64,000 nt of DNA from Alphaproteobacteria bacterium. GTDB taxonomy: Bacteria; Pseudomonadota; Alphaproteobacteria; Bin98. The stretch spans positions 57,046 to 121,045 of the forward strand of contig OZ253461.1 in NCBI GenBank assembly GCA_965261615.1, read 5' to 3'. How positions within the stretch are numbered: position 1 is the stretch's first letter; each line of letters opens with the position of its first letter. Both the position numbers and the translations under genes were made by a program. Below, one piece after another: positions 8,586 through 30,440 of this stretch. The notes beneath the pieces are model-generated. The model made no database searches and was not told the DNA's origin. It was given only the letters and a program-made list of their open reading frames with translations.

Positions 8586-9179
8586 CTACAAGAACTTTTC
8601 TCTCAGCAACTGCGCAGCCCTATTTCCCACGCAATAGCTCATTCTTACAAGCATCTTATTTTCGGCCCTCAGCGGCAGTGCACATTCATATCTCTCCTCA
8701 CTATACACACTCTCCCAATACTGCTTTGCCTTATCTAAAAATTTACACTTTACGTCTGCACTTGCCTTGTCCCAACTGCACACATCCTCACCCTCTAAAA
8801 GCTCTGCCAAATTATGTACCCATTTTTTTTCTAGCCGCACAGGGCGACTACTGTTCAAAACGTAGTCCAATCGTGTAAGCGTTTCTCCAGATTGAAAAGA
8901 TTCGTCTTTCAGATTTTCCAATGTCGCGTACGCCTCTTCATCAATCCGGGGCGATTTGATGAAGCCCTCTAAAAGGCGCACTCGTTTTACTGTGGCTTCC
9001 CTTGCATTCTCATACGCTTTCAAATCAGCTTCACACAGCCACTGGCTTACTGCAGAAGAGTTCACTAAAACCTCCTCACCTTTTTCCAGTTTTTGATACA
9101 AACCTAGCTCGTCTTCCCTAAGAAAACCAGCTGAATACACACTACTGGCAATAATTAATACACACAACGCTTTAAACAT
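8586..9179 (-). CDS. Hypothetical secreted protein; paralog of 10422..11021
   Basis: Signal peptide MFKALCVLIIASSVYSAG. It shares LVNSS..QWL and a C-terminal Cys-containing region with the 199-aa ORF at 10422..11021. Confidence 0.5.
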   Translation of the reverse strand: MFKALCVLIIASSVYSAGFLREDELGLYQKLEKGEEVLVNSSAVSQWLCEADLKAYENAREATVKRVRLLEGFIKSPRIDEEAYATLENLKDESFQSGETLTRLDYVLNSSRPVRLEKKWVHNLAELLEGEDVCSWDKASADVKCKFLDKAKQYWESVYSEERYECALPLRAENKMLVRMSYCVGNRAAQLLREKFL

Positions 9180-9186
9180 AATTCAC

Positions 9187-10314
9187 CTATTTTTCTTCAT
9201 CCCAAAGGAGCTTCTTTTCTTGAATTTTTCCCAGAATCACCCGGGCCCAATCCAACACAATCAACATCTGGTTACTCCCATACGCTCGACGCACTGTTGC
9301 TGAAGAGTGCGATAAAGCCAGGTGCCAAAACAAAGTCGATAGAGCTTTCGCATGCTCTTTGACACCACTCGACAAATAAGCATCACTCCTTTGCACCATC
9401 GTGCGCACAGAACTCAAGACACTATATACTGAATCGTCTAAACACCAAGCAGAACTTTCATACAAACCTCTCAGCTCTTCGACATACTGCTCCAAAAGAT
9501 CTTTCTGTGCACTATCAACGCACAACAACTCAGGGCCTTTAAGGGCCTGAATCTGATCCAACACCTTCTGGCAAACACTATATGGCGCCTGCCCTCTAAA
9601 CCACGCAAGCAAATTACCATCTCCACTTTCTGCACATACATCAGACAAGTCCCACTCTTTTTCCTTCTCTGAAAACAAGTTGCAAAATGCAGTAGGAGCA
9701 ACATCCTTCTTCTTTAATAAACTCTCAAAAAAAGACGTATTCTTCAATCCTATCGCACTCACTGCGCCACTATCCGCACCAGGAAATTGAATCCTAGCAC
9801 TTTTCACTGCCTTTACCAAACTCTGGTAAATTTCTCCACTAGACTGTTTTTCGTTCATAACAAGCTTCGGAGCCTCGCGCTCCAGCCTCTTCACCCGCTC
9901 AATAGCATGACTGTCTGCAAAGGGTCGGGAATGGGGTGGGCAAATAACCGGACAATCAACCTTCAAAAGTGATGTTCTCTCCATTTCCAGAGCTCGCCTT
10001 TTTTTAGACGCGACAGCACAAGCAAATAGACGTTGTGCCACCACATCTGCCTCACCTTCATCAACCTTTTCCCACGATTTAGTACGATCCACCGCTTTTT
10101 CTAAAGCGTTTTTATGTTCATGAAAGACACCTTCCCACGTCTTGAGATCTTGCCCAACAACAGCCAGCCGCTCTTGTGCAGCATTGAACGCTAACCTCTG
10201 CTCCTCTATACGCCGACGCCTTTCCAAGGCTTTCGTCAACTCTTCATCTGCTGCAATTGCAACTACACTCACCATCAGCATTACGAATACTTTCATCACA
10301 TATCTCCAATACAC
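9187..10314 (-). CDS. Hypothetical secreted protein; paralog of 11018..11998
   Basis: Signal peptide MKVFVMLMVSVVAIAADEELTKALE. It resembles the N-terminus and overall layout of the 326-aa ORF at 11018..11998. Confidence 0.5.
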   Translation of the reverse strand: MYWRYVMKVFVMLMVSVVAIAADEELTKALERRRRIEEQRLAFNAAQERLAVVGQDLKTWEGVFHEHKNALEKAVDRTKSWEKVDEGEADVVAQRLFACAVASKKRRALEMERTSLLKVDCPVICPPHSRPFADSHAIERVKRLEREAPKLVMNEKQSSGEIYQSLVKAVKSARIQFPGADSGAVSAIGLKNTSFFESLLKKKDVAPTAFCNLFSEKEKEWDLSDVCAESGDGNLLAWFRGQAPYSVCQKVLDQIQALKGPELLCVDSAQKDLLEQYVEELRGLYESSAWCLDDSVYSVLSSVRTMVQRSDAYLSSGVKEHAKALSTLFWHLALSHSSATVRRAYGSNQMLIVLDWARVILGKIQEKKLLWDEEK

Positions 10315-10421
10315 TATTTGCCTTATCTAAAAATCACTCACAACAGAAAGTCACTACACGACCCTCTCATACACAACTTTGTACCTTTAACCTCACTCTA
10401 ATACAGTTACCAAAGAAACAC

Positions 10422-11021
10422 CTAATGCCGTTTCAGCAAATCCTCTAGCTTGTCTTGCACACTCCCAGCCAAGTCTCTCCAGAGACGATTTTCCTCAGCC
10501 ACCTCCACCCAACGCCGGTCTTTTCTTTGATCCAAGGCGCACTGCCAGACCTCCTTGGCAAAATCTGCACACCTACCCTTTATTTCTGGACTCGCATCAT
10601 CCCAGAAGGTGTCACTATCACCCAACAGTAAGCTCAACTCCTTGCGCCAATTTGGGTTTAACTCTCGAGGGCTATGAAGTTTCACAATCGTCTCCATATT
10701 ATAAAAACATTGGCAATCCAGCTTAGAGGCTATTTCTTCCGCTGTCGCACGCATATCGCCCACTATTTGAGCAGCGTTACTGTGCTCCTCTGCAAATGTC
10801 ATTCCTTGTATTGTCAATGCCTTTGCCTTTTCATACTCTTCAACCTCATCTTCCTTAAGCCACAGCCTTAACTCAGAAGAGTTGAGAACTAGCCCCTCAC
10901 CACGCTGCACCTTATTAAAAAAAGCCATCTCTCGCTCTTGGCGAATTCTGGGATCACACCACCAAGAAGCAGACTGAACGCAGCTGGCTATCACTAACAA
11001 TACACTAAGTAACTTAATCAT
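10422..11021 (-). CDS. Hypothetical secreted protein; paralog of 8586..9179
   Basis: Signal peptide MIKLLSVLLVIASCVQSASW. LVLNSSELRLWLKEDEVEEYEKAKA aligns with the 8586..9179 product. Confidence 0.5.
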   Translation of the reverse strand: MIKLLSVLLVIASCVQSASWWCDPRIRQEREMAFFNKVQRGEGLVLNSSELRLWLKEDEVEEYEKAKALTIQGMTFAEEHSNAAQIVGDMRATAEEIASKLDCQCFYNMETIVKLHSPRELNPNWRKELSLLLGDSDTFWDDASPEIKGRCADFAKEVWQCALDQRKDRRWVEVAEENRLWRDLAGSVQDKLEDLLKRH

Positions 11022-11998
11022 ATAACACCTACTCTTTTCTGGCTTAACACAGAAGCTTTGCTTCCCTTTTGCAGTTTATGATCACAGGCTTTAATACGCG
11101 ACATCACACCCCGAACCTGCAATAACGCATGCTCTCTCAGCTCTTCTTTTGAGCGAGCTACAACATACTGAAAAAACTCATCGGCCATTTCGCGCGCCCT
11201 CAGCACCCTCTTATCCGATTTTACTTCAAGCAGTTCTTGCCAAGCAGTCACCACACGGCCTTCCTTATCCCGCTTCAAATCAGCGCCCGAGGAATCCATT
11301 ATGTTCTCCTTACTACACATATGTGCTAAACTCTCTCTTTTATCTTGAAGCTCTCTTTGCACATTACTAGCCAAAGAGCTCACATCACAGCGCTCTATAC
11401 TCTGCACCACTGTCAAGGCATCGCGATAATAGCTGTGTATCGCATGACTTTCAAATCTCTGCTCCATCTCTTGTGGGGACTCTACGCATGCCGCTCGAAA
11501 ATCCCACGCGCTCTCTTGTGCTGCAAGCTCTTCAAAAATCTCCCCTTGAAAAGATGAAATGTCCCCGCTTCTAGCACGGGAAATAGCCTCGCCCACTGTC
11601 TGAGGCTCATGACCGTTCAAAGAGCTCTCTCCTGCAGAGGCATGAGTGTCGCCTTTACGCAAAAACTCAAGCAAATCATCTCTCTGACTTAAAAGATTTT
11701 GCTTCTTTCTTTCAGCAACAGCACAATAAAAAACAGCTGCACTTATTTCATTAGCACAATCAGAATCAAGATCCTCCCACGCTAGAGATAAACCCAATGT
11801 ACTATCCACAACTGAATGTAACGAACCCTCGTAACCCTCCACGGCAGATGTCCATTGCATAATTTCTTGCTCAACAACATCAAGAGAGACCTGGTCTCTT
11901 GGTCCGCCCAAAACAAGGCGCGTTTCCAGCGCCTTCGCCAACTCTTCTTCTGCTGCAGTTGCAACTATACCTATCAGCATAAACACTACGGTTTTCAT
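11018..11998 (-). CDS. Hypothetical secreted protein; paralog of 9187..10314
   Basis: Signal peptide MKTVVFMLIGIVATAAEEELAKALE. It contains the AWDFRAACVESPQEMEQRF block that is also seen in 14010..14591. Confidence 0.5.
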   Translation of the reverse strand: MKTVVFMLIGIVATAAEEELAKALETRLVLGGPRDQVSLDVVEQEIMQWTSAVEGYEGSLHSVVDSTLGLSLAWEDLDSDCANEISAAVFYCAVAERKKQNLLSQRDDLLEFLRKGDTHASAGESSLNGHEPQTVGEAISRARSGDISSFQGEIFEELAAQESAWDFRAACVESPQEMEQRFESHAIHSYYRDALTVVQSIERCDVSSLASNVQRELQDKRESLAHMCSKENIMDSSGADLKRDKEGRVVTAWQELLEVKSDKRVLRAREMADEFFQYVVARSKEELREHALLQVRGVMSRIKACDHKLQKGSKASVLSQKRVGVI

Positions 11999-13904: not shown

Positions 13905-13962
13905 CTGGCTATACGGTCACAACTACACTCACCATCGGCATGACTAATATTTTCGCCCGCTC
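13905..13962 (-). pseudogene. Decayed 5' remnant of a secreted-protein paralog (signal-peptide fragment only)
   Basis: The reverse complement reads ...KILVMPMVSVVVTV*. The DNA caccatcggcatgactaatattttc resembles the start region of 9187..10314 (caccatcagcattacgaatactttcat). No downstream ORF follows. Confidence 0.3.
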
Positions 13963-14009: not shown

Positions 14010-14591
14010 TTAATCGACAGCAGCCACATTGCTTTTAACATTGCCTCCGGCTTTAACACGCAAACGCATGTCCTCCACTTGACCTAATGCATATTGATTC
14101 AACTCATTTTCTGAGCGCACAAACACATAAGTAAACAGCTGAATCGCCACTTCACGCACCATCAACTCTCTGTCACTCCCTGATGCACAAAAGCTTTTCC
14201 AAGCAGCTTCCAAATGGCTCTCTCTATCTTGCAAAGATACAGGTTTGCCCAATGCCTTTATACAACAATCCAGTTTGGCGTGCAGCTCCTCTTCCTTTTT
14301 TTGAAGTTGCGCAGAACCCAGAGTGTCTGTTTCTATTTGCCGCACTAACGCCCAGGCCTCCTGAAACGTGCGGTATATTCTCTCCCTCTTAAATCTCTCC
14401 CGAAGCTCGTGTGGTGGCTCTACACATGCAGCACGAAAATCCCATGCACTCCCTATCTTAAGAAGAGCTGTAAAGTGGCCTGGGTAAACGTCGACTTTTT
14501 CACTGGTTCTAGCCGCACGAATGTCGTCCTCTATTGACGAGCATACAGCTGTCACTGTCCATACCATTAGCATCAATATTATTTTCATCAC
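14010..14591 (-). CDS. Hypothetical secreted protein; paralog of the C-terminal half of 11018..11998
   Basis: Signal peptide MMKIILMLMVWTVTAVCSS. GSAWDFRAACVEPPHELRERF matches ESAWDFRAACVESPQEMEQRF in 11018..11998. Confidence 0.5.
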   Translation of the reverse strand: MMKIILMLMVWTVTAVCSSIEDDIRAARTSEKVDVYPGHFTALLKIGSAWDFRAACVEPPHELRERFKRERIYRTFQEAWALVRQIETDTLGSAQLQKKEEELHAKLDCCIKALGKPVSLQDRESHLEAAWKSFCASGSDRELMVREVAIQLFTYVFVRSENELNQYALGQVEDMRLRVKAGGNVKSNVAAVD

Positions 14592-14619: not shown

Positions 14620-14988
14620 TTACACTGATCCGGTTCGCCGCTTCTCTAAAGCCTCAGCTAACCGTTCATCCCAAAACAGTCCTGCAGGCTTTTGTTGCAA
14701 GCGCGCTATTTCCTCATTCAGGGACACAAGATCCAGGGGGTGAGCTATCTCTCTGATGCGCTGATCAACTACTCTTCGCTTCTCTAAAGCCTCAGCTAAC
14801 CGTTCATCCCGAAACAGTCCTGCAGGCTTTTTTTGCAAGCGATCTATCTCCACGTTCAAAGGCACAAGTTTCTGCTTCTCTTGCGCTATTTGCGCGTCAC
14901 GCTCCTTTTGATCACATTCTTCATTAGATGCAGCAACCGCAGCCACACTCACAAACATCAACGCTAATATTTTCATTAAATTCTCCAT
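14620..14988 (-). CDS. Small secreted coiled-coil protein with an internal ~40-aa tandem repeat
   Basis: Signal peptide MKILALMFVSVAAVAASNEE. Two copies of L(Q)KKPAGLF(R/W)DERLAEALEKRR are encoded by a ~120-bp direct repeat (approx. 14625-14705 and 14765-14845). Confidence 0.5.
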   Translation of the reverse strand: MENLMKILALMFVSVAAVAASNEECDQKERDAQIAQEKQKLVPLNVEIDRLQKKPAGLFRDERLAEALEKRRVVDQRIREIAHPLDLVSLNEEIARLQQKPAGLFWDERLAEALEKRRTGSV

Positions 14989-15211
14989 TGTTTAGATTAT
15001 AGCCCAAAACCTCACACACGACAATACAGAAGATAAGCGCTACTTTGATCGACCTATATCACCCAGGTAAACACCCTCCAAAAACACAAAGGCAATCTCA
15101 TGCACCCATGTTTTTGTGTCTTCTTTCAACCAATCGGGCCCTTTAGTGCGCGAGACGATTGCACCCAACGAAACAATCTACACGCCATCAAGCAAAAGGT
15201 GCATTTGCTGC

Positions 15212-15292
15212 TCTAGGTCCATTTTGACAATAGTTTTTTTCTGATGCCGCAACTGCTGCTATACTCACTAGCATCAATAATATTATTTTCAT
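15212..15292 (-). pseudogene. Truncated remnant of a small-secreted-protein family member
   Basis: The reverse complement from ATG 15290-15292 encodes MKIILLMLVSIAAVAASEKKLLSKWT* (26 aa). This matches the family signal peptide but stops immediately afterwards. Confidence 0.35.
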
Positions 15293-15328
15293 CAAAATCT
15301 CCTTATGTCTTTAAAAACCAAATACACT

Positions 15329-15727
15329 CTAATCGAGGGCCTTTTTTACGCACGCTAATCTCTCCTGTGTCGCTTTCAACTCCTCTTTTTTCTCTTTTAG
15401 ACGTTGGTTCTCGCCAGGCTGTGTCTCCCAGAAGCTTACATCTTTTTGCAACAACTGGGCAATCTCGCTAGCGATCTTAAAATCATTAAGCATTTTTACG
15501 CGCCCACTCCACATCTTCCGTTCTTCTTTCTTCCCCTCTAGCCTTGCCCGCTCTTGAGGCAAATCCCCCAAGTATTTTATATCTGCGTCAAGCAAATCAA
15601 TTGTATACTTTACATCTCGCATTTCAGTCATTCTTCGATTGTATTCTTGCTGCTCAAAATACTGCAACCCTTCATCCTGTGCTGCAGCCGCCACTATACT
15701 CACTATCATCAATAATATTATTTTCAT
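15329..15727 (-). CDS. Small secreted coiled-coil protein (family with 14620, 15766, 16010)
   Basis: MKIILLMIVSIVAAAAQDEGLQYFEQQEY...; the likely start is the Met at ~15727. The C-terminal part is charged and helical. Confidence 0.5.
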   Translation of the reverse strand: MKIILLMIVSIVAAAAQDEGLQYFEQQEYNRRMTEMRDVKYTIDLLDADIKYLGDLPQERARLEGKKEERKMWSGRVKMLNDFKIASEIAQLLQKDVSFWETQPGENQRLKEKKEELKATQERLACVKKALD

Positions 15728-15765
15728 AACTATCTCCACTCTCATTAACTGCCCGCAATGCCACG

Positions 15766-15963
15766 CTAGAGGATCTCATTAAGCGCTGCCCGCAACTCCT
15801 TTTCCTGCCACGCTAAACTTTGGCTCTGGATGGGCCTTTCCCTCAAAATGCTTATATCTCTTTTAAGAAGCCAAATCTCAGCTTCCTTGAGCTTCACCCA
15901 TGCAACACCTTCATCCTGTGCTGCAGCCGCCACTATACTCATAAGCATCACCATTACTATCAT
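15766..15963 (-). CDS. Small secreted protein, same family (65 aa)
   Basis: MIVMVMLMSIVAAAAQDEGVAWVKLKEAE... shares the signal peptide and QDEG motif with neighbouring genes. Confidence 0.4.
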   Translation of the reverse strand: MIVMVMLMSIVAAAAQDEGVAWVKLKEAEIWLLKRDISILRERPIQSQSLAWQEKELRAALNEIL

Positions 15964-16009
15964 CTAAAGCCTCCGCTAAACTATGTCCTAACTCAAAGCA
16001 CTCCAAGTC

Positions 16010-16279
16010 TTAGTCTGTTCCGCCTGAAGAAACAAAAGTCGTCAACACATCTAAGCGCGTTTTCCACCAACCCAGATCCTTTAGCTTGGCCTCTAGCCTT
16101 GACCACTCTTTAGGATTACCCTTCAAGAGTTTTACATCTTCCTCAAGCAAAGTAACCATATGTTGCGCGTCCCGCATCTCCACCATTATTTGAGCTTTTT
16201 CTTGCTCAGCCCACTGCAACCCTTCATTCTGTGCTGCAATCGCCGCTATACTCACAATCATAAATGCTAATGTTTTCAT
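16010..16279 (-). CDS. Small secreted coiled-coil protein, same family
   Basis: MKTLAFMIVSIAAIAAQNEGLQWAEQEKAQIMVEMRD... has the same layout as 15329..15727. Confidence 0.5.
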   Translation of the reverse strand: MKTLAFMIVSIAAIAAQNEGLQWAEQEKAQIMVEMRDAQHMVTLLEEDVKLLKGNPKEWSRLEAKLKDLGWWKTRLDVLTTFVSSGGTD

Positions 16280-16483
16280 CAAAATCTCCATTATCCAGAT
16301 TGTATCCTATGTAAAAAAATCCCACAAACTACAACACCAATCCGCCAGAGATCCGCGACTCAATCTGTATCATATAAGTAACTAGCAGACGAACCCATGC
16401 CATCAGACTTTAGCGCTACTCTTTAAGCCAAAAGACTATTAGCCAAAGTGGTGCGTTTTGAGGGGGTTCACTTACACACCCGT

Positions 16484-16687
16484 CTAAGTTTTATAAGCCA
16501 GACAATCCTGAAGCTCTTTCAGATCTCGCCAATACAAGTGAACTCTTGCTTGCACCATCTCGCTTTGAGGCTGCTTCTTCCAATACTCAATGTTTGCACA
16601 AACGTGTCGTATCTCCTTTTCCACTTGCGAAACCGTCATACTATCCCAATCAAATGCCATCGCCGCTACACTCACCATCACCAACAC
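16484..16687 (-). CDS. Small hypothetical protein (67 aa), possibly related to the family
   Basis: MLVMVSVAAMAFDWDS... has an N-terminus in the same style. Support is weaker. Confidence 0.3.
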   Translation of the reverse strand: MLVMVSVAAMAFDWDSMTVSQVEKEIRHVCANIEYWKKQPQSEMVQARVHLYWRDLKELQDCLAYKT

Positions 16688-16755
16688 GAATAGTTCACCT
16701 TACACCACCCCCAAGCTCGCATCCTAAGGCCTTCTTGTCCACCCGTTACATTCAA

Positions 16756-20045: not shown

Positions 20046-20927
20046 ATGAATTTTATCCTTATTTTCACTCTATGCATATCAACCTACTCGATTGGCGCTA
20101 GTTCTCACGCAACCACTTCTATTTGGAATGAGTGGAGCGTGGAAGAGCTCGCCTACTTTTTGCAATTCAACAGTGCTATTGTAGAGAGTTGTTCAACCGC
20201 CTTGCAGTATAACTATAAAAGCACTCACGAGACAAGAATCAAGACAGCTCTAAGTCACTTACACCAGCAATACACCGAAGCAGTCGTATCTTGTGCTGAA
20301 GCATTTTATGACGCTTTATACCCCCAGGAGCACGCTAAGGCAAGTGACACAGAGCCTCTCAGCTATCAATCACTGCCCTCCTTCAGGAAAAGTGCGCTCT
20401 TCCAGAACGACAAGTTCCACCCCGAATTAGCCCGTTTAATAAAAAAGCATGCTAGCAAAGACGGCCCAACCTGGAACACCGACCTCCCCAGTGACTATTT
20501 TCCCTTCGCAATCCTCTCTGAAAATAGTTTTGGTAGCATTACACACATCACAATCCCACTTTATATTGCAAAAAAGGGCAGCCTTCAACAAACACACATA
20601 CACAAACATGACGCAGAGGTCTTGATCCCCACAGACAGCACATTAGCCTTAAGCAAACACGCACTACTGACCATAGAAACCGGAGCCATATTTATATTTG
20701 CAAAAATCGCCATTTCCCCTTTAACTAAAGCCCTGTCTCAGAAGCTATCTTTTACCGCATACGAAACAAAAAGATCGCCCACATCACCCTTAGAAGCACG
20801 TCCGCGTAGTCAACAGATAGAGCTCTGTCTCGCACAGCTCTATCAGCATCGCCCAAAGTCTTCTCCAAGCGCAACACCTGACCTTATAAGACCGGAGCCA
20901 CCCACAGCTACACTTATAAAATTTTAA
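20046..20927 (+). CDS. Family-A secreted paralog 1 (293 aa)
   Basis: Signal peptide MNFILIFTLCISTYSIGASSHA. Conserved blocks SCAEAFYDAL, LFQNDKFHPELARLIKKH, IPLYI, HIHKHDAEVLIPT, GAIFIFAKI, SFTAYETK, and a C-terminus IRPEPPTATLIKF. Confidence 0.7.
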   Translation: MNFILIFTLCISTYSIGASSHATTSIWNEWSVEELAYFLQFNSAIVESCSTALQYNYKSTHETRIKTALSHLHQQYTEAVVSCAEAFYDALYPQEHAKASDTEPLSYQSLPSFRKSALFQNDKFHPELARLIKKHASKDGPTWNTDLPSDYFPFAILSENSFGSITHITIPLYIAKKGSLQQTHIHKHDAEVLIPTDSTLALSKHALLTIETGAIFIFAKIAISPLTKALSQKLSFTAYETKRSPTSPLEARPRSQQIELCLAQLYQHRPKSSPSATPDLIRPEPPTATLIKF

Positions 20928-21084
20928 TAGATAATTTGGAAGGAAGCTACCCACCCTGTATACCCCCCAGATAAGGCCCCTACTGACAAGCCTTTTAGGT
21001 TTGAAAGCTTGCGCACACCGCCGGATATTCAGAGGCAGCGATAAAATAAGTTCCTTAACAGAGCTTTCTGTGATAAACTGCGTA

Positions 21085-22050
21085 ATGATGAATTTTACCC
21101 TTATTTTTACTCTATGCATATCAACCTACTCAATTGGCGCTAGTTCTCACACAACCACTTCTGTTTGGGATGGATGGGGCATAACAGAACTCGCAACCTT
21201 TTTGCGATGCAACAATCCTTGTCTCAAGTGTTTTTCAGCCGCCTTACAGTATAACTACAACAGTAAGCACGAAGACAATATCAAAGAGGCCCTAGGGCAC
21301 GTACACCGGCAGATCACCGAGGCGATAGAATCTTGCGCTAAAGCATTCTACAATGCTTTACGCCACCTCCCGGCCCCAAATACGGGAACCGCCTCTACTG
21401 AACACACCGCATTACTCTCCCGTCAACCATTGTCCGCCCATCAGTCATTGCCTGACCTCGAAGCAAGAGAGCTCTTCAAAAGTGGCATGATCCACCCAGA
21501 TTTAGATCGTTTAATAAAACAATATGCTAAAATACAGCCTTCTTGCTGGAACTCACGCCTCGACAACTTAACAAAATACTTTGAGTGCATAAAGTTCGAG
21601 CGAAGTAATGCTGAAAACATTTTACACATATCGCTTCCACTTTATATAGTAGACACGAACGACCATCAGTTAACACAAACACACATAAGCAAACGTGACG
21701 CAAACACCTTAATCCCCACAAACAGCACATTAGTTTTTAACTCAGACGCACTGCATGCCGCAAACACCGGAGCTATATTTGTATATGCAAAAATTACCGT
21801 TGACTCTCTATTGAGACTCTTGGGTAAGAAACTATCTTTTATCGCATATGAGACAAAAGCATCGCCGACATCACCTCTAAAAGCAAGACCAGAAGACGCA
21901 AAGTTTGCCCAAAGGATACAGGAAGAGTGCGAATACCTAACCCAACTCAGCACCCCCCCAAAGCACTCCCTCAAGGAAGCACCAGAGCAAGCATCGAACA
22001 CCACCAGGCAGGAGCCACCAACAGATACACTGATAGCCATTGACTCTTAG
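21085..22050 (+). CDS. Family-A secreted paralog 2
   Basis: MMNFTLIFTLCISTYSIGASSHT... with SCAKAFYNAL, LFKSGMIHPDLDRLIKQ, LPLYI, THISKRDANTLIPT, GAIFVYAKI, SFIAYETK, and a C-terminus TRQEPPTDTLIAIDS. Confidence 0.7.
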   Translation: MMNFTLIFTLCISTYSIGASSHTTTSVWDGWGITELATFLRCNNPCLKCFSAALQYNYNSKHEDNIKEALGHVHRQITEAIESCAKAFYNALRHLPAPNTGTASTEHTALLSRQPLSAHQSLPDLEARELFKSGMIHPDLDRLIKQYAKIQPSCWNSRLDNLTKYFECIKFERSNAENILHISLPLYIVDTNDHQLTQTHISKRDANTLIPTNSTLVFNSDALHAANTGAIFVYAKITVDSLLRLLGKKLSFIAYETKASPTSPLKARPEDAKFAQRIQEECEYLTQLSTPPKHSLKEAPEQASNTTRQEPPTDTLIAIDS

Positions 22051-22185
22051 ACAGGTTTCCCCCATACACCTCGTCCTGCAAGGGACGGCCTGTTCTCCAT
22101 GCGACATCTCGGGCATCACAACAAACCGCATATCCCAAAACACATATAAACTTGACTTTCTGTGCGTTTAAAGTATAATAAGGTT

Positions 22186-23151
22186 ATGATGAAATTTATG
22201 TTTATTGTTACACTACTCATTTCTACTTGCTCTGTCGCAGCTAGTATAGAGCCCCCCTCGTCAAAGTGGGAAGGGTGGGACCTACCAAATCTAGCTACAT
22301 TTTTAAAAACATTCGCAACTCCCGTTACGGCTCTTTCGCACGCCTTGGAGCATCCCAGTTTAGAGGCCTCCACTTCAGAGCAAGAGGGATGGGGTTTAGT
22401 CAATCTAACTACGAGTTTAAGACAATACGCACCTCCCATTAATTATCTGTTGGACTCACTGGGTTGCCCCAATCAGTCTAAGCACTCGAAAAACATAAAA
22501 GAAGCACTCACAGCTCAACTCCAGTGCACCACCCAGTATGTAGAATCCTGCGCCAAAGCATTCTATGCTTTATACCTCCAAACACAGTATAAAAACTCCT
22601 CTAATGAAACAACACCATTACTTACCGGTCAACCATTGATAGCCTTAGATGAGAGTGAACTCTTCAAAAATGCTGAGCTTCACCCAACACTCTCCAATTT
22701 AATTGAAGAGTACGCATGCCCAACGTTTACTGACGTCAAGCCACACCCCGCCCAATTAGGAGACCCCTTTCCTTGCGTAAGATACTGTAGCGATGCAAAG
22801 GCTCAAACCGCAAGCATCGGAGTCCCTCTGTATATATTAGAAAAACACATACTCTATCTACAAAAAACCCACCTAGATATACAAACGGCAGATGCCTTGA
22901 TTCCCACAAGCAGCCCTCCCGCAACTATCGAGAGCGCGCTCTGCTCAGTATACTCCGGTGCCGTATTTATATATGCAGTTGTCCCCATTGCGCCCCGCTC
23001 TTCCATATCGTTTATCGCATACGAAACACAACCTCATCCTGAATCACCTCTACATGAAATCTCTGAAAACCACACAGAATTCAGAAAAGCAATAGAGCGC
23101 TGTGTACAGTCCCAGCATCAGATTTATGTATCTCAATTGAACCACCAATAG
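22186..23151 (+). CDS. Family-A secreted paralog 3 (divergent)
   Basis: MMKFMFIVTLLISTCSVAAS... with SCAKAFYALY, LFKNAELHPTLSNLIEEY, VPLYI, GAVFIYAV, SFIAYETQ. Confidence 0.65.
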   Translation: MMKFMFIVTLLISTCSVAASIEPPSSKWEGWDLPNLATFLKTFATPVTALSHALEHPSLEASTSEQEGWGLVNLTTSLRQYAPPINYLLDSLGCPNQSKHSKNIKEALTAQLQCTTQYVESCAKAFYALYLQTQYKNSSNETTPLLTGQPLIALDESELFKNAELHPTLSNLIEEYACPTFTDVKPHPAQLGDPFPCVRYCSDAKAQTASIGVPLYILEKHILYLQKTHLDIQTADALIPTSSPPATIESALCSVYSGAVFIYAVVPIAPRSSISFIAYETQPHPESPLHEISENHTEFRKAIERCVQSQHQIYVSQLNHQ

Positions 23152-23347
23152 TTATACTTATCGGACTCTAATTGAATAGTCTGGGGCGTTTCCCCCCGTT
23201 TAATGGTGGGTACGCCCTAGATCAGGCTCCCACTGCCAAGCCTTTTTGATTTGAAAGCTTGCGCATGCTACCGAAAGGATGAGCAAATACAGCAAAAATA
23301 TAAACTAAGTAGGGGGCTAGCATTTTTTGTGATATAACTACTGTACG

Positions 23348-24187
23348 ATGAAATTTATACTTATATTTACACTATTCATATCAGGCTACTCTGTCGCAGC
23401 TAGTTCAGACGCATACTCTTCAGTGTGGACAGGATGGGGCGTCGCAGATCTCGCAACCTTTTTAAAATACAACAGTGGTTGTGTAAACAGTTTGTCAGTC
23501 GCCTTACAACATAAATATAACAGTGATCATGAATCAAACATCAAGGAAGCTCTAACGCACTTACACCAGCAATACACCGATGCAGTAGTGTCTTGCGCTA
23601 AAGCATTTTATGACTCTTTATTCCTCCAAGAGAAGACTACACTCAGCTACCAACCACTACCTTCCTTCAAGAAAAATGATCTTTTTAAAAACGACAAATT
23701 CCACCCGGACTTAGAGCGTTTAATAAAAAAACACAGCACAAAGAGTCCAGTGTGGAACCCTCGCCTCAACGAATTACAAGACTACTACCACCGATTAAGG
23801 GTCTATCGAAATACTTTGCGCGAGGTGACACACATCGAGATTCCACTTTATATAGAAAGCAAGAGCAACCATCAGTTAACGCACAGACACATAAGCAAAC
23901 GTGACGCAAGTGCCTTGAACCCGACATCAAGAACATTAGCTTTTACAAAAGATGCACAGCTTACCGCACACAACGGGGCTACATTTATATTTGCAAGAAT
24001 CGCCGTCCACCCTATGAGTTTTTCTCTGCGGTTTAAACGCCTTTCATTTACCGCATACGAAACACAATCTCAGCCTGAATCACCCCTAAAGGCAAGCCCA
24101 GAAGACATAGGGTTTTGCAAACTAGTCGCACAAGAGTGCGAAGCACTAGCGAAGCACAGCAAAACCACAAGTCGAATCTACAGATAG
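23348..24187 (+). CDS. Family-A secreted paralog 4
   Basis: MKFILIFTLFISGYSVAASSDA... with SCAKAFYDSL, LFKNDKFHPDLERLIKKH, IPLYI, RHISKRDASAL, GATFIFARI, SFTAYETQ. Confidence 0.7.
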   Translation: MKFILIFTLFISGYSVAASSDAYSSVWTGWGVADLATFLKYNSGCVNSLSVALQHKYNSDHESNIKEALTHLHQQYTDAVVSCAKAFYDSLFLQEKTTLSYQPLPSFKKNDLFKNDKFHPDLERLIKKHSTKSPVWNPRLNELQDYYHRLRVYRNTLREVTHIEIPLYIESKSNHQLTHRHISKRDASALNPTSRTLAFTKDAQLTAHNGATFIFARIAVHPMSFSLRFKRLSFTAYETQSQPESPLKASPEDIGFCKLVAQECEALAKHSKTTSRIYR

Positions 24188-24364
24188 GCACTTATAGGCA
24201 TTTAATTGGATAATTTGGGACATTTTCCCCCCGTTTAGTGGTGGGTACGCCCTAGATCAGGCTCCCATTGCCAAGCCTTTTAGCTTTGAAAGCTTCATAG
24301 GATGACAAGCACATCAAATACATTATGTGGACTTTTAGAGTGTTCTATGCTATAAGTTGTTACT

Positions 24365-25243
24365 ATGAAGCTGATCCTTATATTGACACTATTTATATCT
24401 ACCTATTCTATCGGCGCTAGTTCACACGCAGCCACTTCAGTTTGGAGTGGGTGGAACATAGAAGAGCTCGCCTCCTTTTTACAAAGCAAACAGGCTGTAC
24501 TAAAGAGTTGTTCAGCCGCCTTGCAGTATAACTATGAAAGTGATCACGGGCCAAACATCAAGGAAGCCCTAAGGCACTTACACAGGCAATACACCGAAGC
24601 CGTCGTATCTTGCGCTAAAGCATTTTATACTGCATGCACCCAAGAACAGGAGGGCAAATCTTCCACCACTCACAGCACGTCGTTACTCCCCCGCAAGTCA
24701 TTACCACGCTTAGAGGAAAAAGAACTCTTCAAAAATGGCAAGTTCCATCCCGCCTTAGCCCGCTTAATACAGGCACATGATATCCAAGAACACGAGTCTT
24801 GGAACGGGCGCCTCGACCACTTAACTGACCATTTCTCAGCCATGTCTTTCATTACAGATGGTTTTGACGACATTACGCACATCTGTATTCCACTTTACAT
24901 AATAGACAAGAGCAGCCACCGGTTAACGCAAACGCATATAAGCAAAAGTGACGCAAACATCTTGCTCTCCATAAAAAGCCCATTAGCCTTTAACAAAGAA
25001 GCGCTGCTTACCGCACACACCGGTGCCGTATTTATATATGCACAAATCGCCGTTAACTTTTGGCATAGAACCCTGTGTAAGCGCCTGTCGTTTATCGCAT
25101 ACGAAACACAACCTCATCCTGAATCACCTCTACAGGAAATCTCTGAAGACGACACAAATCGTCGCCAAGAAATAGAGAAAGAAGTCCAACATCTAAGAAA
25201 GATCAGAGACGCCTCAGAGCCACCCACAGATGCACTTAATTAA
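24365..25243 (+). CDS. Family-A secreted paralog 5
   Basis: MKLILILTLFISTYSIGASSHA... with SCAKAFYTAC, LFKNGKFHPALARLIQAH, IPLYI, THISKSDANIL, GAVFIYAQI, SFIAYETQ. Confidence 0.7.
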   Translation: MKLILILTLFISTYSIGASSHAATSVWSGWNIEELASFLQSKQAVLKSCSAALQYNYESDHGPNIKEALRHLHRQYTEAVVSCAKAFYTACTQEQEGKSSTTHSTSLLPRKSLPRLEEKELFKNGKFHPALARLIQAHDIQEHESWNGRLDHLTDHFSAMSFITDGFDDITHICIPLYIIDKSSHRLTQTHISKSDANILLSIKSPLAFNKEALLTAHTGAVFIYAQIAVNFWHRTLCKRLSFIAYETQPHPESPLQEISEDDTNRRQEIEKEVQHLRKIRDASEPPTDALN

Positions 25244-25284
25244 CTTCAGTTAGATTAAAATTTTCTGTGATATAATCTCACACG

Positions 25285-26235
25285 ATGAAATTTATACTCA
25301 TATTTACACTCTTCCTCTCAACTTATTCTATCGGTGCTAGTTCACATGCAGACGATTCTGTTTGGGAGGAATGGAGTGTAACAGAACTCGCCAATTTTTT
25401 GAGGGACAAAAGCAGTATGCTGAACTGCTTTTCAGTGGCCTTACAACGTAGCTATGCAAATGATCACGAGGATAATATCAAGCAAGCTCTGACACACCTG
25501 CATCAGAAACATACCCAAGCGTTAGAGTCGTGTGCTGGAGCGTTCTACCGTACTTTACTCCTCCAAAATCCAAATACGACAACAAACTCTTCTGCACACT
25601 CAACATTACTCCCCCGCAAACCACTGCCGCTCTTAGACGAAAGTGAGCTCTTCAAAAACGGTAAATTTCACCCCGATTTCGCTCGCTTAGTAAAAAAACA
25701 TTGCAGCAGAGAGCGCTCTACCTACAACACACGCCTTATCCACGAACAAGACTACCTGCCCTTCATTGCCTGCATCCGCAATATTTATGGCGAAATTATA
25801 TACATGGAAATCCCTCTTTATATAATAAACAAGAGCAGCCATCAATTCACACACACTCACATAAGCAAACGTAACGCAAAAACTTTAATCCCCAAAGAGG
25901 GCACACCGTCTTTTCTAAAAAGCGCTCTATCCACAACACACACCGGGGCCATATTTATATTTGCAAAAATCTCCTTTCGCTCTCTCTTTAACACTCTATC
26001 TTTTAGCGCATATGAAACAAAGGCATCACCTACTGCACGCCTCAAAGCACGACCAAAAGACAAGGAATTTAGCAAAACAATAGAGCAAGGGCTCGACTAT
26101 CTAGCAAAGATGTTAAAAAAAGCAGAAACATCGAGCCCTCAGAAACACCCAGGGCCTTCTCCCAGCACCACCTCTAAGAAAACACCTGACATCACAAGAC
26201 AAGAGCCACCAACAGGTGTACTTATAAACTTTTAG
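25285..26235 (+). CDS. Family-A secreted paralog 6
   Basis: MKFILIFTLFLSTYSIGASSHA... with SCAGAFYRTL, LFKNGKFHPDFARLVKKH, IPLYI, THISKRNAKTL, GAIFIFAKI, SFSAYETK, and a C-terminus ITRQEPPTGVLINF. Confidence 0.7.
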   Translation: MKFILIFTLFLSTYSIGASSHADDSVWEEWSVTELANFLRDKSSMLNCFSVALQRSYANDHEDNIKQALTHLHQKHTQALESCAGAFYRTLLLQNPNTTTNSSAHSTLLPRKPLPLLDESELFKNGKFHPDFARLVKKHCSRERSTYNTRLIHEQDYLPFIACIRNIYGEIIYMEIPLYIINKSSHQFTHTHISKRNAKTLIPKEGTPSFLKSALSTTHTGAIFIFAKISFRSLFNTLSFSAYETKASPTARLKARPKDKEFSKTIEQGLDYLAKMLKKAETSSPQKHPGPSPSTTSKKTPDITRQEPPTGVLINF

Positions 26236-26271
26236 TTGCCCCCCCCTTTTTCTCTGTGATACACTTATGCG

Positions 26272-27201
26272 ATGAAATTTATACTTATATTTACCCTATT
26301 CATATCAACCTATTCTATAGCCGCCAGTTCACACGCAAACGATTCTATTTGGGAGGGGTGGAGCACAACAGAAATCGCTTCCCTTTTAAGACGCACCATG
26401 CCTTGTGTAGACGCTGTTTCATCCGCCTTGCGGTATAACTATAAAAGTGATCATGAGACAAGCATCAAGAAAGCTCTAGAACACCTCCACCAGCAAAACA
26501 CCAAAATCGTAGAATCTTGTGCTCAAGCGCTCTACGAAACTTTACTTCTCCAAGAGCAAGCAAAGGCAAGCAAAACAACACCTCCCAGCAGCTATCAACC
26601 ACTGCCATCCTTCAAGAAAAGCGATCTCTTCAAAGCGGGCAAACTCCACCCCAGCTTATCTCGTTTCATAAAACAGCATGGGAACAAAGACACACATAAA
26701 TGGAACCCAAAACTCAACCACTTAAGAAACTATTTTAAGGTAGGGTTCACTCCAAACGCTAATGGCGAAATTATAGAAGTGGAACTCCCTCTTTATATAA
26801 TAAAAAAGAACGACTGTCAGTTAACGCAAACGCACATAAGCAAACGTGACGCAAACACCTTAATCTCCACAGACAGCACATTAGCCTTTGTCAAAGACGC
26901 TCTACAAACCACAGAAACAGGAGCCATATTTATATATGCTAAAATCACCCTTCAGCCTCTATTGAGACTGCTGAATGGAACCTGCTCTTTTTCCGCATAT
27001 GAAACAAAACCATCTCCCCTATCACGCCTAAAAGCACGCCCAAAAGACATACAATTTAGCAAAGAAATAGAGCAAGCGTGCGCAGATCTAGCAAAGATCA
27101 GCAAAAAAGAAATAAGTCGGCCCCCCAGCAGAACACCTGAGCCCACGACTGACGTCACAAGGCCAGAGCTACCAACCGGTATACTTATAACTTTTTGTTA
27201 G
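26272..27201 (+). CDS. Family-A secreted paralog 7
   Basis: MKFILIFTLFISTYSIAASSHA... with SCAQALYETL, LFKAGKLHPSLSRFIKQH, LPLYI, THISKRDANTL, GAIFIYAKI, SFSAYETK, and a C-terminus TRPELPTGILITFC. Confidence 0.7.
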   Translation: MKFILIFTLFISTYSIAASSHANDSIWEGWSTTEIASLLRRTMPCVDAVSSALRYNYKSDHETSIKKALEHLHQQNTKIVESCAQALYETLLLQEQAKASKTTPPSSYQPLPSFKKSDLFKAGKLHPSLSRFIKQHGNKDTHKWNPKLNHLRNYFKVGFTPNANGEIIEVELPLYIIKKNDCQLTQTHISKRDANTLISTDSTLAFVKDALQTTETGAIFIYAKITLQPLLRLLNGTCSFSAYETKPSPLSRLKARPKDIQFSKEIEQACADLAKISKKEISRPPSRTPEPTTDVTRPELPTGILITFC

Positions 27202-27230
27202 ATTTAAAATTTTCTGTGATACAGTACATC

Positions 27231-28160
27231 ATGAAATTTATACTTATATTTACCCTATTCATATCAACCTATTCTATCGGCGCTAGTTCACATGCAGCTA
27301 CTTCAGCCTGGGAAGGGTGGAGCGTAACAGAACTCGCAACATTTTTACAATACAACAGTCGTCGTATAAACGGCCTTTCAACTGCCTTACAATATAAATT
27401 TAACAGCACTCATGCGACAAACATCAAGGAAGCTCTAGCGAACTTGCACCGGCAATACACCGATGCGGTAGTGTCTTGCGCTAAAGCATTTTATGATGCT
27501 TTATTCCTCCAAGAAAAGACTGTACTCAGCTATCAACCACTACCTGCCTTCAAGAAAGATGATCTTTTTAAAAACGACAAATTCCACCCGGACTTAGAGC
27601 GTTTAATAAAAAAACACAGCACACAGAGCCCAATGTGGAACCCTTGCCTCGACGAATTACAAGACTACTTCAACCACGTAGGGGTACTCCATAATGACTC
27701 TCACGAGATAACATACATCGAAATTCCACTTTATATAGAAAGCAAGAGCAGCCATCAGCTAACACAAAAACATATAAGCAAACGTGACGTAAATGCCTTG
27801 AGCCCTACAGAACGCACATTAGCTTTTAACAAAGACGCTCTACGAACCACAGACACCGGCGCCGTATTTATATATGCAAAAATCGCGGTCCACCCTATGA
27901 AAATTCTGTTTAAGACCCTGTCTTTTATAGCATATGAAACAAAGCCATCTCCCACATCACCCCTAAAGGCACGCCCAAAAGACATGGCATTTTGCCAAAA
28001 AATGGAGAAAAAGTGCGCAGAGCTAGCAAAGCTCAGCAAAAAAATAAATGAGTCCGCCTCCCAGCAACAACCCGATCCTTCCTCAAAAAGCACAACCCCT
28101 GAGGAAACGTCTGACATCACAAGGCAGGAGCCACCAACAGGTATACTTGTAAACTTTTAG
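27231..28160 (+). CDS. Family-A secreted paralog 8
   Basis: MKFILIFTLFISTYSIGASSHA... with SCAKAFYDAL, LFKNDKFHPDLERLIKKH, IPLYI, KHISKRDVNAL, GAVFIYAKI, SFIAYETK, and a C-terminus ...KINESASQQQPDPSS...SDITRQEPPTGILVNF. Confidence 0.7.
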   Translation: MKFILIFTLFISTYSIGASSHAATSAWEGWSVTELATFLQYNSRRINGLSTALQYKFNSTHATNIKEALANLHRQYTDAVVSCAKAFYDALFLQEKTVLSYQPLPAFKKDDLFKNDKFHPDLERLIKKHSTQSPMWNPCLDELQDYFNHVGVLHNDSHEITYIEIPLYIESKSSHQLTQKHISKRDVNALSPTERTLAFNKDALRTTDTGAVFIYAKIAVHPMKILFKTLSFIAYETKPSPTSPLKARPKDMAFCQKMEKKCAELAKLSKKINESASQQQPDPSSKSTTPEETSDITRQEPPTGILVNF

Positions 28161-29300
28161 TTGGATAATCTGGGGCGTTATCCACCTTGTAATTAACAAG
28201 GTGGAGGCACCTTATATATGACCACACACTTACGGTTTTCATTTCACCCACTGCAAATGCAGAGACCCAACTATAGCCAAAACATAAACTAACTTGTCTT
28301 ACGGCCTGATCTATGATAATATCTCTCCATGATGCAACTTATACTTATATTTACCCTCTTCATATCAACCTATTCTGTGGCCGCCAGTTCACAGGAAGAC
28401 GGTTCTATTTGGGAGGGATGGAACACAGCAGATCTTGCCTCCTTTTTAAGACGCGTCGTGCCTTGTGTAGACGCTATTTCATCCGCCTTGCAGTATAACT
28501 ATAACAATAAGCATGAGCAACACATCAAGAAAGCTCTAACGCACCTCCACCAGCAAAACACCAAAGCCGTAGAGTCTTGTGCTCATGCGCTCTACGATGC
28601 TTTATTCCTCCAAGAGCAAGCCAAGGAAGGTGCAACAACACCTCTCAGCAGCTATCAACAACTGCCCTCCTTCAAGAAAAGTGAGCTCTTCAAAGCGGGC
28701 AAACTCCACCCCAGATTATCTCGTTTCATAAAACAGCATGGGAGCAACAAAAGACATCTGGGCAACCCACAACTCGACAGCTTAACGGACTATTTTTGTG
28801 GGGCATATTTCACTCCAAACGCCGCTGGCGAAATTATAGAAGTGGAAATCCCTCTTTATATAATAAAAAAGAACGACTGTCCATTAACGCAAACGCACAT
28901 AAGCACACACGACGCAAACACCTTAACCCCAGGCACATTAGTCTGGAACCAAGACGCTCTACTAACAACAGAAACCGGAGCCATATTTATATATGCAAAA
29001 ATCAACCTTCCACCTCTGTTGAGACTCTTTAGTGGAACCTGCTCTTTTGCTGCATATGAAACAAAACCATCTCCCACACCACGCCTAAAAGCAAGCCCAG
29101 AAGGCATAAAATTCAGCCAGAAAATAGAGCAAAAGTGCGCATATCTAGCAACGCTCAGCATAGAACAAAGATCAGCAGCACAAAGATCAATGAGTCGGCC
29201 CCCCAGCCACAACCAGACCCTTCCTCAAGAAGCATAACTCCTGAGCAAACGTCTGACATCACAAGGCAGGAGCCACCAACAGGTATACTTATAGAATTTT
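28161..29300. repeat. Copy 1 of a ~1.14 kb near-identical tandem duplication (intergenic element plus a family-A gene)
   Basis: 28161-29300 is ~99% identical to 29301-~30440. The two begin ttggataatctggggcgttatccaccttgtaattaacaaggtgg and ttgaataatctggggcgttatccacctttaattaacaaggtgg respectively. Confidence 0.8.
28329..29237 (+). CDS. Family-A secreted paralog 9, C-terminus frameshifted relative to its duplicate
   Basis: MMQLILIFTLFISTYSVAASSQ... The protein is identical to the first module of 29470..32319 until ~29160. There a ~16-nt deletion inside the 84-bp linker repeat shifts the frame. The ORF then ends ...SMSRPPSHNQTLPQEA*, while the canonical family C-terminus (SDITRQEPPTGILIEF*) lies in another frame and ends at ~29301. 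Confidence 0.6.
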   Translation: MMQLILIFTLFISTYSVAASSQEDGSIWEGWNTADLASFLRRVVPCVDAISSALQYNYNNKHEQHIKKALTHLHQQNTKAVESCAHALYDALFLQEQAKEGATTPLSSYQQLPSFKKSELFKAGKLHPRLSRFIKQHGSNKRHLGNPQLDSLTDYFCGAYFTPNAAGEIIEVEIPLYIIKKNDCPLTQTHISTHDANTLTPGTLVWNQDALLTTETGAIFIYAKINLPPLLRLFSGTCSFAAYETKPSPTPRLKASPEGIKFSQKIEQKCAYLATLSIEQRSAAQRSMSRPPSHNQTLPQEA

Positions 29301-30440
29301 AGTTGAATAATCTGGGGCGTTATCCACCTTTAATTAACAAGGTGGAGACACCTTATATATGACCACACACTTACGGTTTTCATTTCACCCACTGCAAATG
29401 CAGAGACCCAACTATAGCCAAAACATAAACTAACTTGTCTTACGGCCTGATCTATGATAAAATCTCCCCATGATGCAACTTATACTTATATTTACCCTCT
29501 TCATATCAACCTATTCTGTGGCCGCCAGTTCACAGGAAGACGGTTCTATTTGGGAGGGATGGAACACAGCAGATCTTGCCTCCTTTTTAAGACGCGTCGT
29601 GCCTTGTGTAGACGCTATTTCATCCGCCTTGCAGTATAACTATAACAATAAGCATGAGCAACACATCAAGAAAGCTCTAACGCACCTCCACCAGCAAAAC
29701 GCCAAAGCCGTAGAGTCTTGTGCTCATGCGCTCTACGATGCTTTATTCCTCCAAGAGCAAGCCAAGGAAGGTGCAACAACACCTCTCAGCAGCTATCAAC
29801 AACTGCCCTCCTTCAAGAAAAGTGAGCTCTTCAAAGCGGGCAAACTCCACCCCAGATTATCTCGTTTCATAAAACAGCATGGGAGCAACAAAAGACATCT
29901 GGGCAACCCACAACTCGACAGCTTAACGGACTATTTTTGTGGGGCATATTTCACTCCAAACGCCGCTGGCGAAATTATAGAAGTGGAAATCCCTCTTTAT
30001 ATAATAAAAAAGAACGACTGTCCATTAACGCAAACGCACATAAGCACACACGACGCAAACACCTTAACCCCAGGCACATTAGTCTGGAACCAAGACGCTC
30101 TACTAACAACAGAAACCGGAGCCATATTTATATATGCAAAAATCAACCTTCCACCTCTGTTGAGACTCTTTAGTGGAACCTGCTCTTTTGCTGCATATGA
30201 AACAAAACCATCTCCCACACCACGCCTAAAAGCAAGCTCAGAAGGCATAAAATTCAGCCAGAAAATAGAGCAAAATTGCGCATATCTAGCAACGCTCAGC
30301 ACAAAGATAAATGAGTCAGCTCCCCAGCAACAACCAGACCCTTCAAGCATAGAGCAAGAGTGTGCAGACCAAAAGATCAGCAGCACAAAGATCAATGAGT
30401 CGGCCCCCCAGCCACAACCAGACTCTTCTATTTGGGCGGG
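29301..30440. repeat. Copy 2 of the ~1.14 kb tandem duplication
   Basis: See copy 1 at 28161..29300. A third, partial copy follows at ~30428-31230 (tctatttgggcgggatggaacacagcagatcttgcc... matches 28403 onward). Confidence 0.8.

Follow-up and report, generated by a model that had tools for sequence, protein, structure and literature searches.

A 64,000-nucleotide stretch of contig OZ253461.1 from an alphaproteobacterial genome (assembly GCA_965261615.1; hereafter the window) carries, at positions 14,620 to about 16,700 of its minus strand, a cluster of small genes whose products begin with a common leader. We give a probability of roughly 0.6 to the reading that these belong to a lineage-specific, fast-evolving tandem family of genuine genes for small helical proteins with a putative Sec export signal. 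According to this model, SecYEG would export the products and signal peptidase I would cleave the leader, and the highly charged, all-helical proteins of about 50-116 residues released in this way, whether three-helix antiparallel coiled coils or helix-Pro-helix hairpins, would reach the periplasm or a place beyond it. The array would grow, shrink and diversify by tandem duplication, unequal crossing-over or deletion, and gene conversion, with selection keeping the leader peptide near constant while the mature parts diverge quickly. The same leader would therefore head bodies between which any recognisable kinship has been lost or was never there, among them those of three larger two-domain proteins. 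The array is presented here as a new orphan family of a familiar kind, with no new mechanism.

The first-pass annotation of this DNA had described five minus-strand open reading frames (ORFs) of 65-138 aa sharing a leader, and both parts of that description held. The five ORFs span 14620-14988 (122 aa), 15329-15745 (138 aa), 15766-15963 (65 aa), 16010-16291 (93 aa) and 16484-16687 (67 aa), all on the minus strand. A hidden Markov model (HMM) of the leader, run against the six-frame translation of the whole window, recovered 10 copies, every one at an ORF start on the minus strand between 9.2 and 16.7 kb, and none elsewhere; such clustering on one strand at ORF starts is far beyond chance. Seven of these copies matched at E 2.5e-12 to 1.5e-8, and the other three (those of g14010, g16484 and a remnant at 13912-13960) are degenerate. 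The leader is borne by five small genes (65-132 aa), three larger ones (192-369 aa), one frameshifted mini-gene and one dead remnant, and each copy is preceded by its own ribosome-binding site. When the 5' ends were aligned, the shared module consisted of a GGAG(A/G) Shine-Dalgarno motif, conserved 5-7 nt ahead of each ATG, then ATG-AAA and a leader of 15-16 codons, of the type MKIILLMIVSIVAAAA. The conserved ATG-AAA is likely the true start, which would give products of 118 aa (g14620), 132 aa (g15329), 65 aa (g15766), 89 aa (g16010) and 67 aa (g16484), and a public protein collection holds proteins of exactly these lengths, matching the conserved starts.

The small genes are genuine and protein-coding. 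We scored them with a codon-position model trained on 20 long ORFs of the window that lie outside the orphan families, several of which have Pfam-supported housekeeping functions. In frame, the small ORFs scored +0.08 to +0.38 log-likelihood units per codon, where the training genes average 0.23/0.25, and in shifted frames they scored negative; plus-strand ORFs that overlap them gave about -0.09 to +0.17 per codon. Further evidence came from a HMMER search with the family profile, in which one new member of 81 aa (P0013) turned up; its gene lies on L081, a metagenome contig of 1294 bp in ENA (sample SAMN12291685, ENA ERZ23496358) that is syntenic with the window. This contig carries, in order, the C-terminal end of a gene resembling g15329, then P0013, the mini-gene in an intact 47-aa form, a 119-aa orthologue of g14620 that keeps both internal repeats of that gene, and the start of a g14010 orthologue. 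The orthologues in the window and on L081 are separated by 0.86-1.35 synonymous substitutions per synonymous site (dS), and the ratio of nonsynonymous to synonymous substitution (dN/dS) was 0.29 for g14620 (0.32 for the mature part and 0.04 for the leader), 0.40 for the C-terminal end of g15329 and 0.38 for the N-terminal end of g14010. DNA identity was 70-88% in the coding and promoter/Shine-Dalgarno segments and 32-51% in the intergenic ones. A promoter-like site upstream of g14620 (TTGTCG-17-TATAAT, 14996-15024, minus strand) is 70% identical in L081, where its TATAAT and the GGAG ahead of the gene are both kept, although a scan of promoters overall was not above chance (8 sites vs 5.1 +/- 2.1 expected).

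We then considered the leader itself, which the first-pass annotation had taken for an export signal. It consists of Met-Lys, 10-12 hydrophobic residues and Ala-x-Ala, followed by Gln/Ser and acidic residues. Its uncharged stretch is 12-17 residues long, Ala-x-Ala end included, with a mean Kyte-Doolittle hydropathy of 1.7-2.9, and Lys2 is present in eight of the 10 copies, g15766 and g16484 having no Lys. Read from the sequence, the putative cleavage sites are AAA|Q, AIA|A-Q, AVA|A-S and AIA|A-D, each followed by acidic residues and none with Pro at +1. The leader thus has the positively charged n-region, the hydrophobic h-region and the small neutral residues at -3 and -1 of a candidate Sec/signal peptidase I substrate. 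No small member has a Cys at or near the end of its leader that could form a lipobox ([LVI][ASTVI][GAS]C), and no twin-arginine (Tat) motif (S/T-R-R-x-F-L-K) was found in an n-region that consists of Met-Lys alone. As the uncharged stretch is too short for a membrane span, the leader is probably an export signal rather than a membrane anchor, in agreement with the earlier proposal; the leader of TolB, which is certainly periplasmic and whose gene also lies in the window, is just as short (MLFLLLITVASYTLQA).

The same segment is, however, unusually constant for something that would be discarded. In g14620, 15 of the 16 leader residues are identical to those of the L081 orthologue despite five synonymous changes, and across paralogues the leaders remain similar whereas the bodies do not. 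Conservation of a leader above its mature part, among paralogues and orthologues alike (dN/dS of 0.04 vs 0.32), is typical of a functional transmembrane helix, and it would suit small bitopic inner-membrane proteins whose signal-anchor stays uncleaved and holds a periplasmic coiled-coil stalk, with an architecture like that of FtsB/DivIC. Residues 15-66 of g14620 did give a match to the FtsB/DivIC family (PF04977; E 0.013), but its 15.7 bits fall far under the cut-off of 28.9, and the other members gave none. We consider this arrangement unlikely, since the last 3-4 of the 12-17 uncharged residues are the Ala-x-Ala end, which leaves too little for a stable span; Ala at -3/-1 followed by Gln/Ser-Asp/Asn-Glu is the pattern of a canonical signal peptidase I site; and the g14010 leader, unlike that of g14620, has diverged freely between orthologues, as disposable signals do.

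Downstream of the leader, the Sec-exported family that we favour is far less uniform. Mature parts are charged, as had been noted, with 30-41% charged residues, but the proposed common continuation after the leader was found in three members only, as QDEG/QNEG; g14620 has SNEE at this place, and the leader of g16484 is itself degenerate. Once the leader was removed, the bodies of g15329 (15329-15727, 132 aa, leader MKIILLMIVSIVAAAA) and g16010 (16010-16279, 89 aa, leader MKTLAFMIVSIAAIAA, leader HMM E 2.5e-12, then QNEG and a helical body) were clearly homologous (E 1e-10 to 1e-12), and that of g15766 (15766-15963, 65 aa, leader MIVMVMLMSIVAAAA) was marginally similar to g15329 (E 0.06); in g15766 a TAG occupies the codon aligned to the family ATG, which moves the start by one codon. 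When its leader is included in the comparison, P0013 matches the family at E 7.7e-6. With the leader removed, no relation to the other members was detectable for g14620 (14620-14976, 118 aa, leader MKILALMFVSVAAVAA, then two copies of a unit of ~33-46 aa; 64% identical to its L081 orthologue) or for g16484 (16484-16687, 67 aa; recorded as P0011), the most degenerate member, which has a GTG start, a leader (M/V)LVMVSVAAMA that matched the leader HMM at E 2.8, a body that includes IEYWKKQPQ, and codon log-likelihood ratios of +0.14/+0.30.

The claim that larger neighbours at 9-14.6 kb use this leader was borne out for three genes on the minus strand, g9187 (9187-10296, 369 aa, leader E 1.1e-8), g11018 (11018-11998, 326 aa, leader E 2e-10) and g14010 (14010-14588, 192 aa), but not for g8586, g10422 and g12355, which have other signal peptides; that of g18125 also differs in sequence from the family leader. 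In g11018 the leader is followed by an N-domain and a C-domain, both of which g9187 shares more distantly. In g14010 the leader (MKIILMLMVWTVTAVCSS) is joined directly to the C-domain (E 1e-20 to the C-terminal half of g11018), and this gene looks like a deletion derivative of a g11018-type gene. A profile of the small proteins did not match the N-domain of g9187 and g11018 (hhalign probability 0.2%). Since no similarity between bodies was detectable across these groups, one leader heads at least four body types.

For one of the bodies a helical fold was predicted, consistent with the first description of them. Mature g15329 (116 aa), the one small protein modelled, gave an all-helical AlphaFold2 model (mean predicted local distance difference test score, pLDDT, 90.9; predicted template modelling score, pTM, 0.77) with helices at 2-38, 41-85 and 91-115 and breaks at Pro41 and TQPGE, a confident prediction of a long three-helix antiparallel coiled coil with a generic fold. 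Its best structural matches were likewise long three-helix coiled coils, and generic only: the SipB/IpaB N-terminal region (3tul) and bMERB/BAR-type bundles share 7% sequence identity with it, a likeness of long-helix geometry that does not speak for common descent or a common function. For the g14010 domain, the AlphaFold2 model (pLDDT 59.6) was too poor for a fold search. MAFFT placed one Pro in the same column for all five small proteins. A helix-Pro-helix unit, considered as a repeat common to all members, was not supported for g14620, on which an HMM of this unit scored no better than on shuffled sequences (774 of 1000 shuffles scored at least as high), and was marginal on g16484 (4/1000 shuffles scored as high) and on the N-domain of g9187.

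The array bears several traces of recombination. The internal direct repeat reported within g14620 was present, with a size of 92 nt and a period of 138 nt (46 codons) rather than ~120 bp; its copies, at 14777-14868 (copy 1) and 14639-14730 (copy 2) on the minus strand, are 89% identical. As both copies exist in the relative, the duplication is old. Compared with each other, copies 1 and 2 show 85% nucleotide identity in the window and 53% in L081, and copy 1 of the window resembles its orthologue at the 5' end but copy 2 over the remainder, the mark of a recent intragenic gene conversion in which copy 2 overwrote the 3' two-thirds of copy 1. The 5' modules are also mosaic: over the leader's first 24 nt g15188 (the mini-gene) and g15329 share 96% identity, as do g15329 and g15766 over the 24 nt that follow, and the 25 nt upstream of g14620 and g16010 are 76% identical. 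Gene content differs between the two loci, as L081 has one extra gene, P0013, between g15329 and the mini-gene. P0013 (L081 170-415) starts with GTG, and the window has no counterpart of it at the corresponding position. The sequence right after it aligns with the DNA downstream of g15329, and therefore the two-unit g15329 may be a fusion/deletion product of two neighbouring genes.

Loss is seen as well as gain. At 13912-13960 (minus strand), a leader remnant (..AKILVMPMVSVVVTV, leader HMM E 0.39, repeat family D2) has GCG in place of its ATG and a stop directly after the leader, and the mini-gene (15178-15292, minus strand) is out of frame in this genome. The latter had been annotated as a 26-aa stub at 15212-15292 and a truncated family fragment. 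The stub ORF actually spans 15188-15292 and reads MKIILLMLVSIAAVAASEKNYCQNGPRAANAPFA to its stop, 34 aa as sequenced; the claimed tail SEKKLLSKWT belongs to another frame, reached by miscounting an A7 run at 15234-15240. We prefer to call it a mini-gene because it is intact in L081. Removing one A of the run restores a 37-aa ORF, MKIILLMLVSIAAVAASEKTIVKMDLEQQMHLLLDGV, that ends at a TAG at 15178-15180 and whose C-terminal end matches the 47-aa orthologue; this conserved end, ..LEQQMH(L/F)LLDGV before the stop, has 78% nucleotide identity to L081 and a dN/dS of about 0.4 on 19 codons, and it is out of frame because of a 29-nt indel relative to L081. Any of three causes would produce such a break: an error in sequencing the homopolymer, a frameshift of recent date, or phase variation. 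Between the mini-gene and g14620 lies a 42-aa ORF (15040-15168, minus strand) with coding-like codon statistics (+0.19/+0.18), which may be the decayed remains of a lost gene body. We rejected it as the lost body of the mini-gene, as it did not significantly resemble any member and L081 does not keep it as an ORF.

The earlier suggestion that one leader was shuffled in modular fashion onto different cargo was therefore sustained in part: unlike bodies do stand under one leader, with mosaic modules, conversion and changes in content, but transfer onto pre-existing cargo is only one possible account of this. Tandem duplicates may instead have retained a leader under constraint, and divergence or the loss of segments may have made their mature parts unrecognisable. 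The stronger form of this idea is that a portable promoter/Shine-Dalgarno/leader cassette is moved by recombination onto different bodies and so varies a secreted or surface repertoire, with the A7 run as a phase-variation switch, as in mycoplasma variable-surface-protein loci or phytoplasma SVM genes. The lack of detectable homology among the four or more body types, the mosaic modules and gene conversion, the copy number unlike that of L081, and the position of the A7 run exactly at the mini-gene frameshift would all fit. We find it quite improbable, however, as the copies are co-oriented, each with its own Shine-Dalgarno site and start codon, and there are no inverted repeats or silent promoterless cassettes. 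Gene order is shared with L081 at a dS of about 0.9, which argues that the array is not rearranging rapidly. Moreover, a programmed switch is unlikely because the A7 run is absent from the orthologue, which has GCAGAAGAGCAC at that place. The difference in frame from L081 is an indel of 29 nt.

The mycoplasma Vsp/Vlp/Vsa proteins are lipoproteins, with Cys at +1, and are switched through poly-A tracts in their promoters or through site-specific inversion. These systems (see also PMC9630594) resemble the array in having a highly conserved 5' region with a signal peptide, variable and internally repetitive bodies, and clustered genes, and homopolymer tracts take part in their on/off switching; they differ in that the array has no lipobox or inversion sites, and its A7 run is not conserved in L081.

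The region 8586-11998 (minus strand) is a duplicated unit, g9187/g8586 and g11018/g10422, in which a large leader-family protein is followed by a ~198-aa protein with a different signal peptide; g10422 contains a lipobox-like IASC that its paralogue g8586 does not. Because the two genes of this unit are translationally coupled (by an ATGA overlap at 11018-11021 between g11018 and the start of g10422) and the small genes share the co-oriented cluster with larger orphan secreted proteins, one might suppose the small proteins to be periplasmic partners of the larger ones (immunity proteins, inhibitors or chaperones), as in polymorphic-toxin/effector-immunity cassettes, where orphan arrays also hold decayed and truncated copies such as those seen here. 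This seems very improbable to us: no toxin, enzyme or immunity domain was detectable in any member, the small genes have no one-to-one pairing with the large ones, and small and large proteins carry the same leader rather than alternating. That the small ORFs are non-functional, as decaying fragments of larger paralogues or chance ORFs, is barely tenable, for although decay is plain in two copies (13912-13960 and 15178-15292), coding scores are weakest in g16484 and g15766, whose starts are atypical, and homologues are confined to one genome and one contig, the orthologous ORFs are intact with a dN/dS of 0.3-0.4 at a dS of about 0.9, codon statistics resemble those of housekeeping genes, Shine-Dalgarno sites and promoter are conserved, and g15329 gave a confident helical-bundle model.

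In order to evaluate how widely the family of putatively exported helical proteins is distributed, we relied mainly on an exhaustive HMMER search of 1.84e9 protein representatives; in these and in 5.8e9 clusters the family occurred only in this genome and on L081. The HMMER search returned the five query proteins, P0013 and one insect repeat protein (P0012), which we rejected as a spurious multi-repeat match. Word-seeded protein searches with g15329, g11018 and an 8-sequence alignment also found only this genome and L081, but these are the weaker negatives because they missed known paralogues (g14010 with g11018 as query, and g16010 with the family alignment). Scans of JGI metagenome contigs with the leader DNA pattern and with g14620 gave no matches, an Rfam scan of the window gave none, and exact look-ups of window proteins in a contig index recorded none. 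Pfam and NCBIfam scans of all family members produced sub-threshold noise only. For the 10 proteins compared, there was no match at E <= 1 to the phytoplasma SVM_signal family (PF12113), and CpxP/Spy/ZraP (LTXXQ) gave neither a Pfam match at E <= 1 nor an LTXXQ motif in the sequences. The window proteins that were tested are singletons in the protein-cluster collection, all from a single contig of 1,465,401 bp, and the tyrosyl-tRNA synthetase of the window is at most 47-49% identical to those of other Alphaproteobacteria, in a genome-contig scan that found no syntenic relative. The source is therefore a small-genome alphaproteobacterium (about 1.47 Mb) from a divergent and sparsely sampled lineage.

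With low confidence, we suggest that the products have no enzymatic activity and act as binding or structural proteins, either in the envelope or at a host/partner interface; the grounds are the small genome and a window crowded with signal-peptide-bearing orphan families. Several points weigh against our preferred reading as a whole. The orthologue comparison consists of one 1294-bp contig; g16484 has no positive n-region; export and cleavage of the products are deduced from the anatomy of the sequences; and the host interface is suggested solely by the size of the genome and its genes. Mature proteins usually change more slowly than signal peptides do; where a leader is much better conserved than its cargo, a plain Sec signal that is cleaved off is a poorer match than a leader with some further function, for instance in a dedicated sorting step or as a retained anchor that makes specific contacts. 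In a bolder version, the hyper-conserved leader would be a family-specific address tag or recombination handle by which an uncultured, small-genome alphaproteobacterium joins one export/sorting module to unrelated cargo and so gains a rapidly diversifying repertoire of small coiled-coil proteins for delivery to host or partner cells; the system would parallel the phytoplasma SVM effectors in a diderm, and in it the 37-47-aa mini-gene would encode a secreted peptide; we regard this as distinctly unlikely.

The array belongs to none of the phytoplasma SVM, staphylococcal lpl or Liberibacter effector families, although each shares some of its features. The phytoplasma SVM proteins (PF12113; SAP11, SAP54; PMC8026896) likewise put a conserved signal-peptide motif on small variable secreted proteins of a reduced genome, in repeated and rearranging genomic contexts, but they have no sequence relationship to the array, and their genes lie in transposon-like mobile units rather than in a simple co-oriented tandem array. 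Furthermore, since the source is a diderm alphaproteobacterium and not a wall-less mollicute, Sec export here would reach only the periplasm. The lpl cluster of S. aureus (Tsuru and Kobayashi 2008, PMC2568036) also consists of exported tandem paralogues with a segment conserved in all copies, and that segment is a site of homologous recombination by which variable parts are shuffled and copy number is changed (PMC2568036). The lpl products, however, are ~260-aa lipoproteins whose conserved region is central, whereas in the array, for which two genomes were compared, it is the 5' leader that is conserved, and the products have short helical bodies and no lipobox. The Sec-delivered effectors (SDEs) of 'Candidatus Liberibacter asiaticus' (PMC7662370) are similar in being small orphan proteins with classical Sec signals, from an alphaproteobacterium with a small genome, that are thought to act outside the bacterium. 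They show no homology to the array and do not form one leader-sharing tandem family, and a host-directed role, documented for some SDEs (PMC7662370), would be putative for the array. If the products of the array are exported, then they and the other signal-peptide-bearing orphan families of the window would make up much of the secretome of a poorly known lineage, and they would be obvious candidates for action on a host or partner. The array also offers a clean small example of a constant leader with diverging cargo, of concerted evolution of an internal repeat, and of tandem gain and loss.

Outside the array, the window is full of further signal-peptide-bearing orphan families. A second tandem family occupies the plus strand at 20046-32319, with about ten co-oriented paralogues of 280-350 aa that share the leader MKFILIFTLFISTYSIGASSH and have no Pfam match; in its last gene (29470-32319, 949 aa), three family copies are fused through STKINESAPQPQPDSS-type repeats. 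Two further members of this family lie 23 kb away, at 54885-55712 and 55814-56629 (plus strand), and are flanked by a pair of orphan paralogues with signal peptides (53772-54878 and 56820-57848, plus strand; E 3e-51). On the minus strand at 38453-46303, six consecutive ORFs encode proteins of ~400-470 aa, most with hydrophobic N-termini, and one of them (42254-43597) has a Trypsin_2 peptidase domain. Only those at 39643-40971 and 43594-44892 detect each other, and weakly (E 3e-5); the group may be a divergent array of secreted proteases. In the region 52085-53450, the gene for release factor 2 (RF-1/PCRF domains; 52320-53450, minus strand) is overlapped by a 185-aa ORF on the plus strand. Finally, the GC skew of the plus strand was -0.15 to -0.35 in every 2-kb window along positions 1-64000, regardless of the strand on which the genes lie, an asymmetry that is unusually strong and uniform for a bacterial chromosome.

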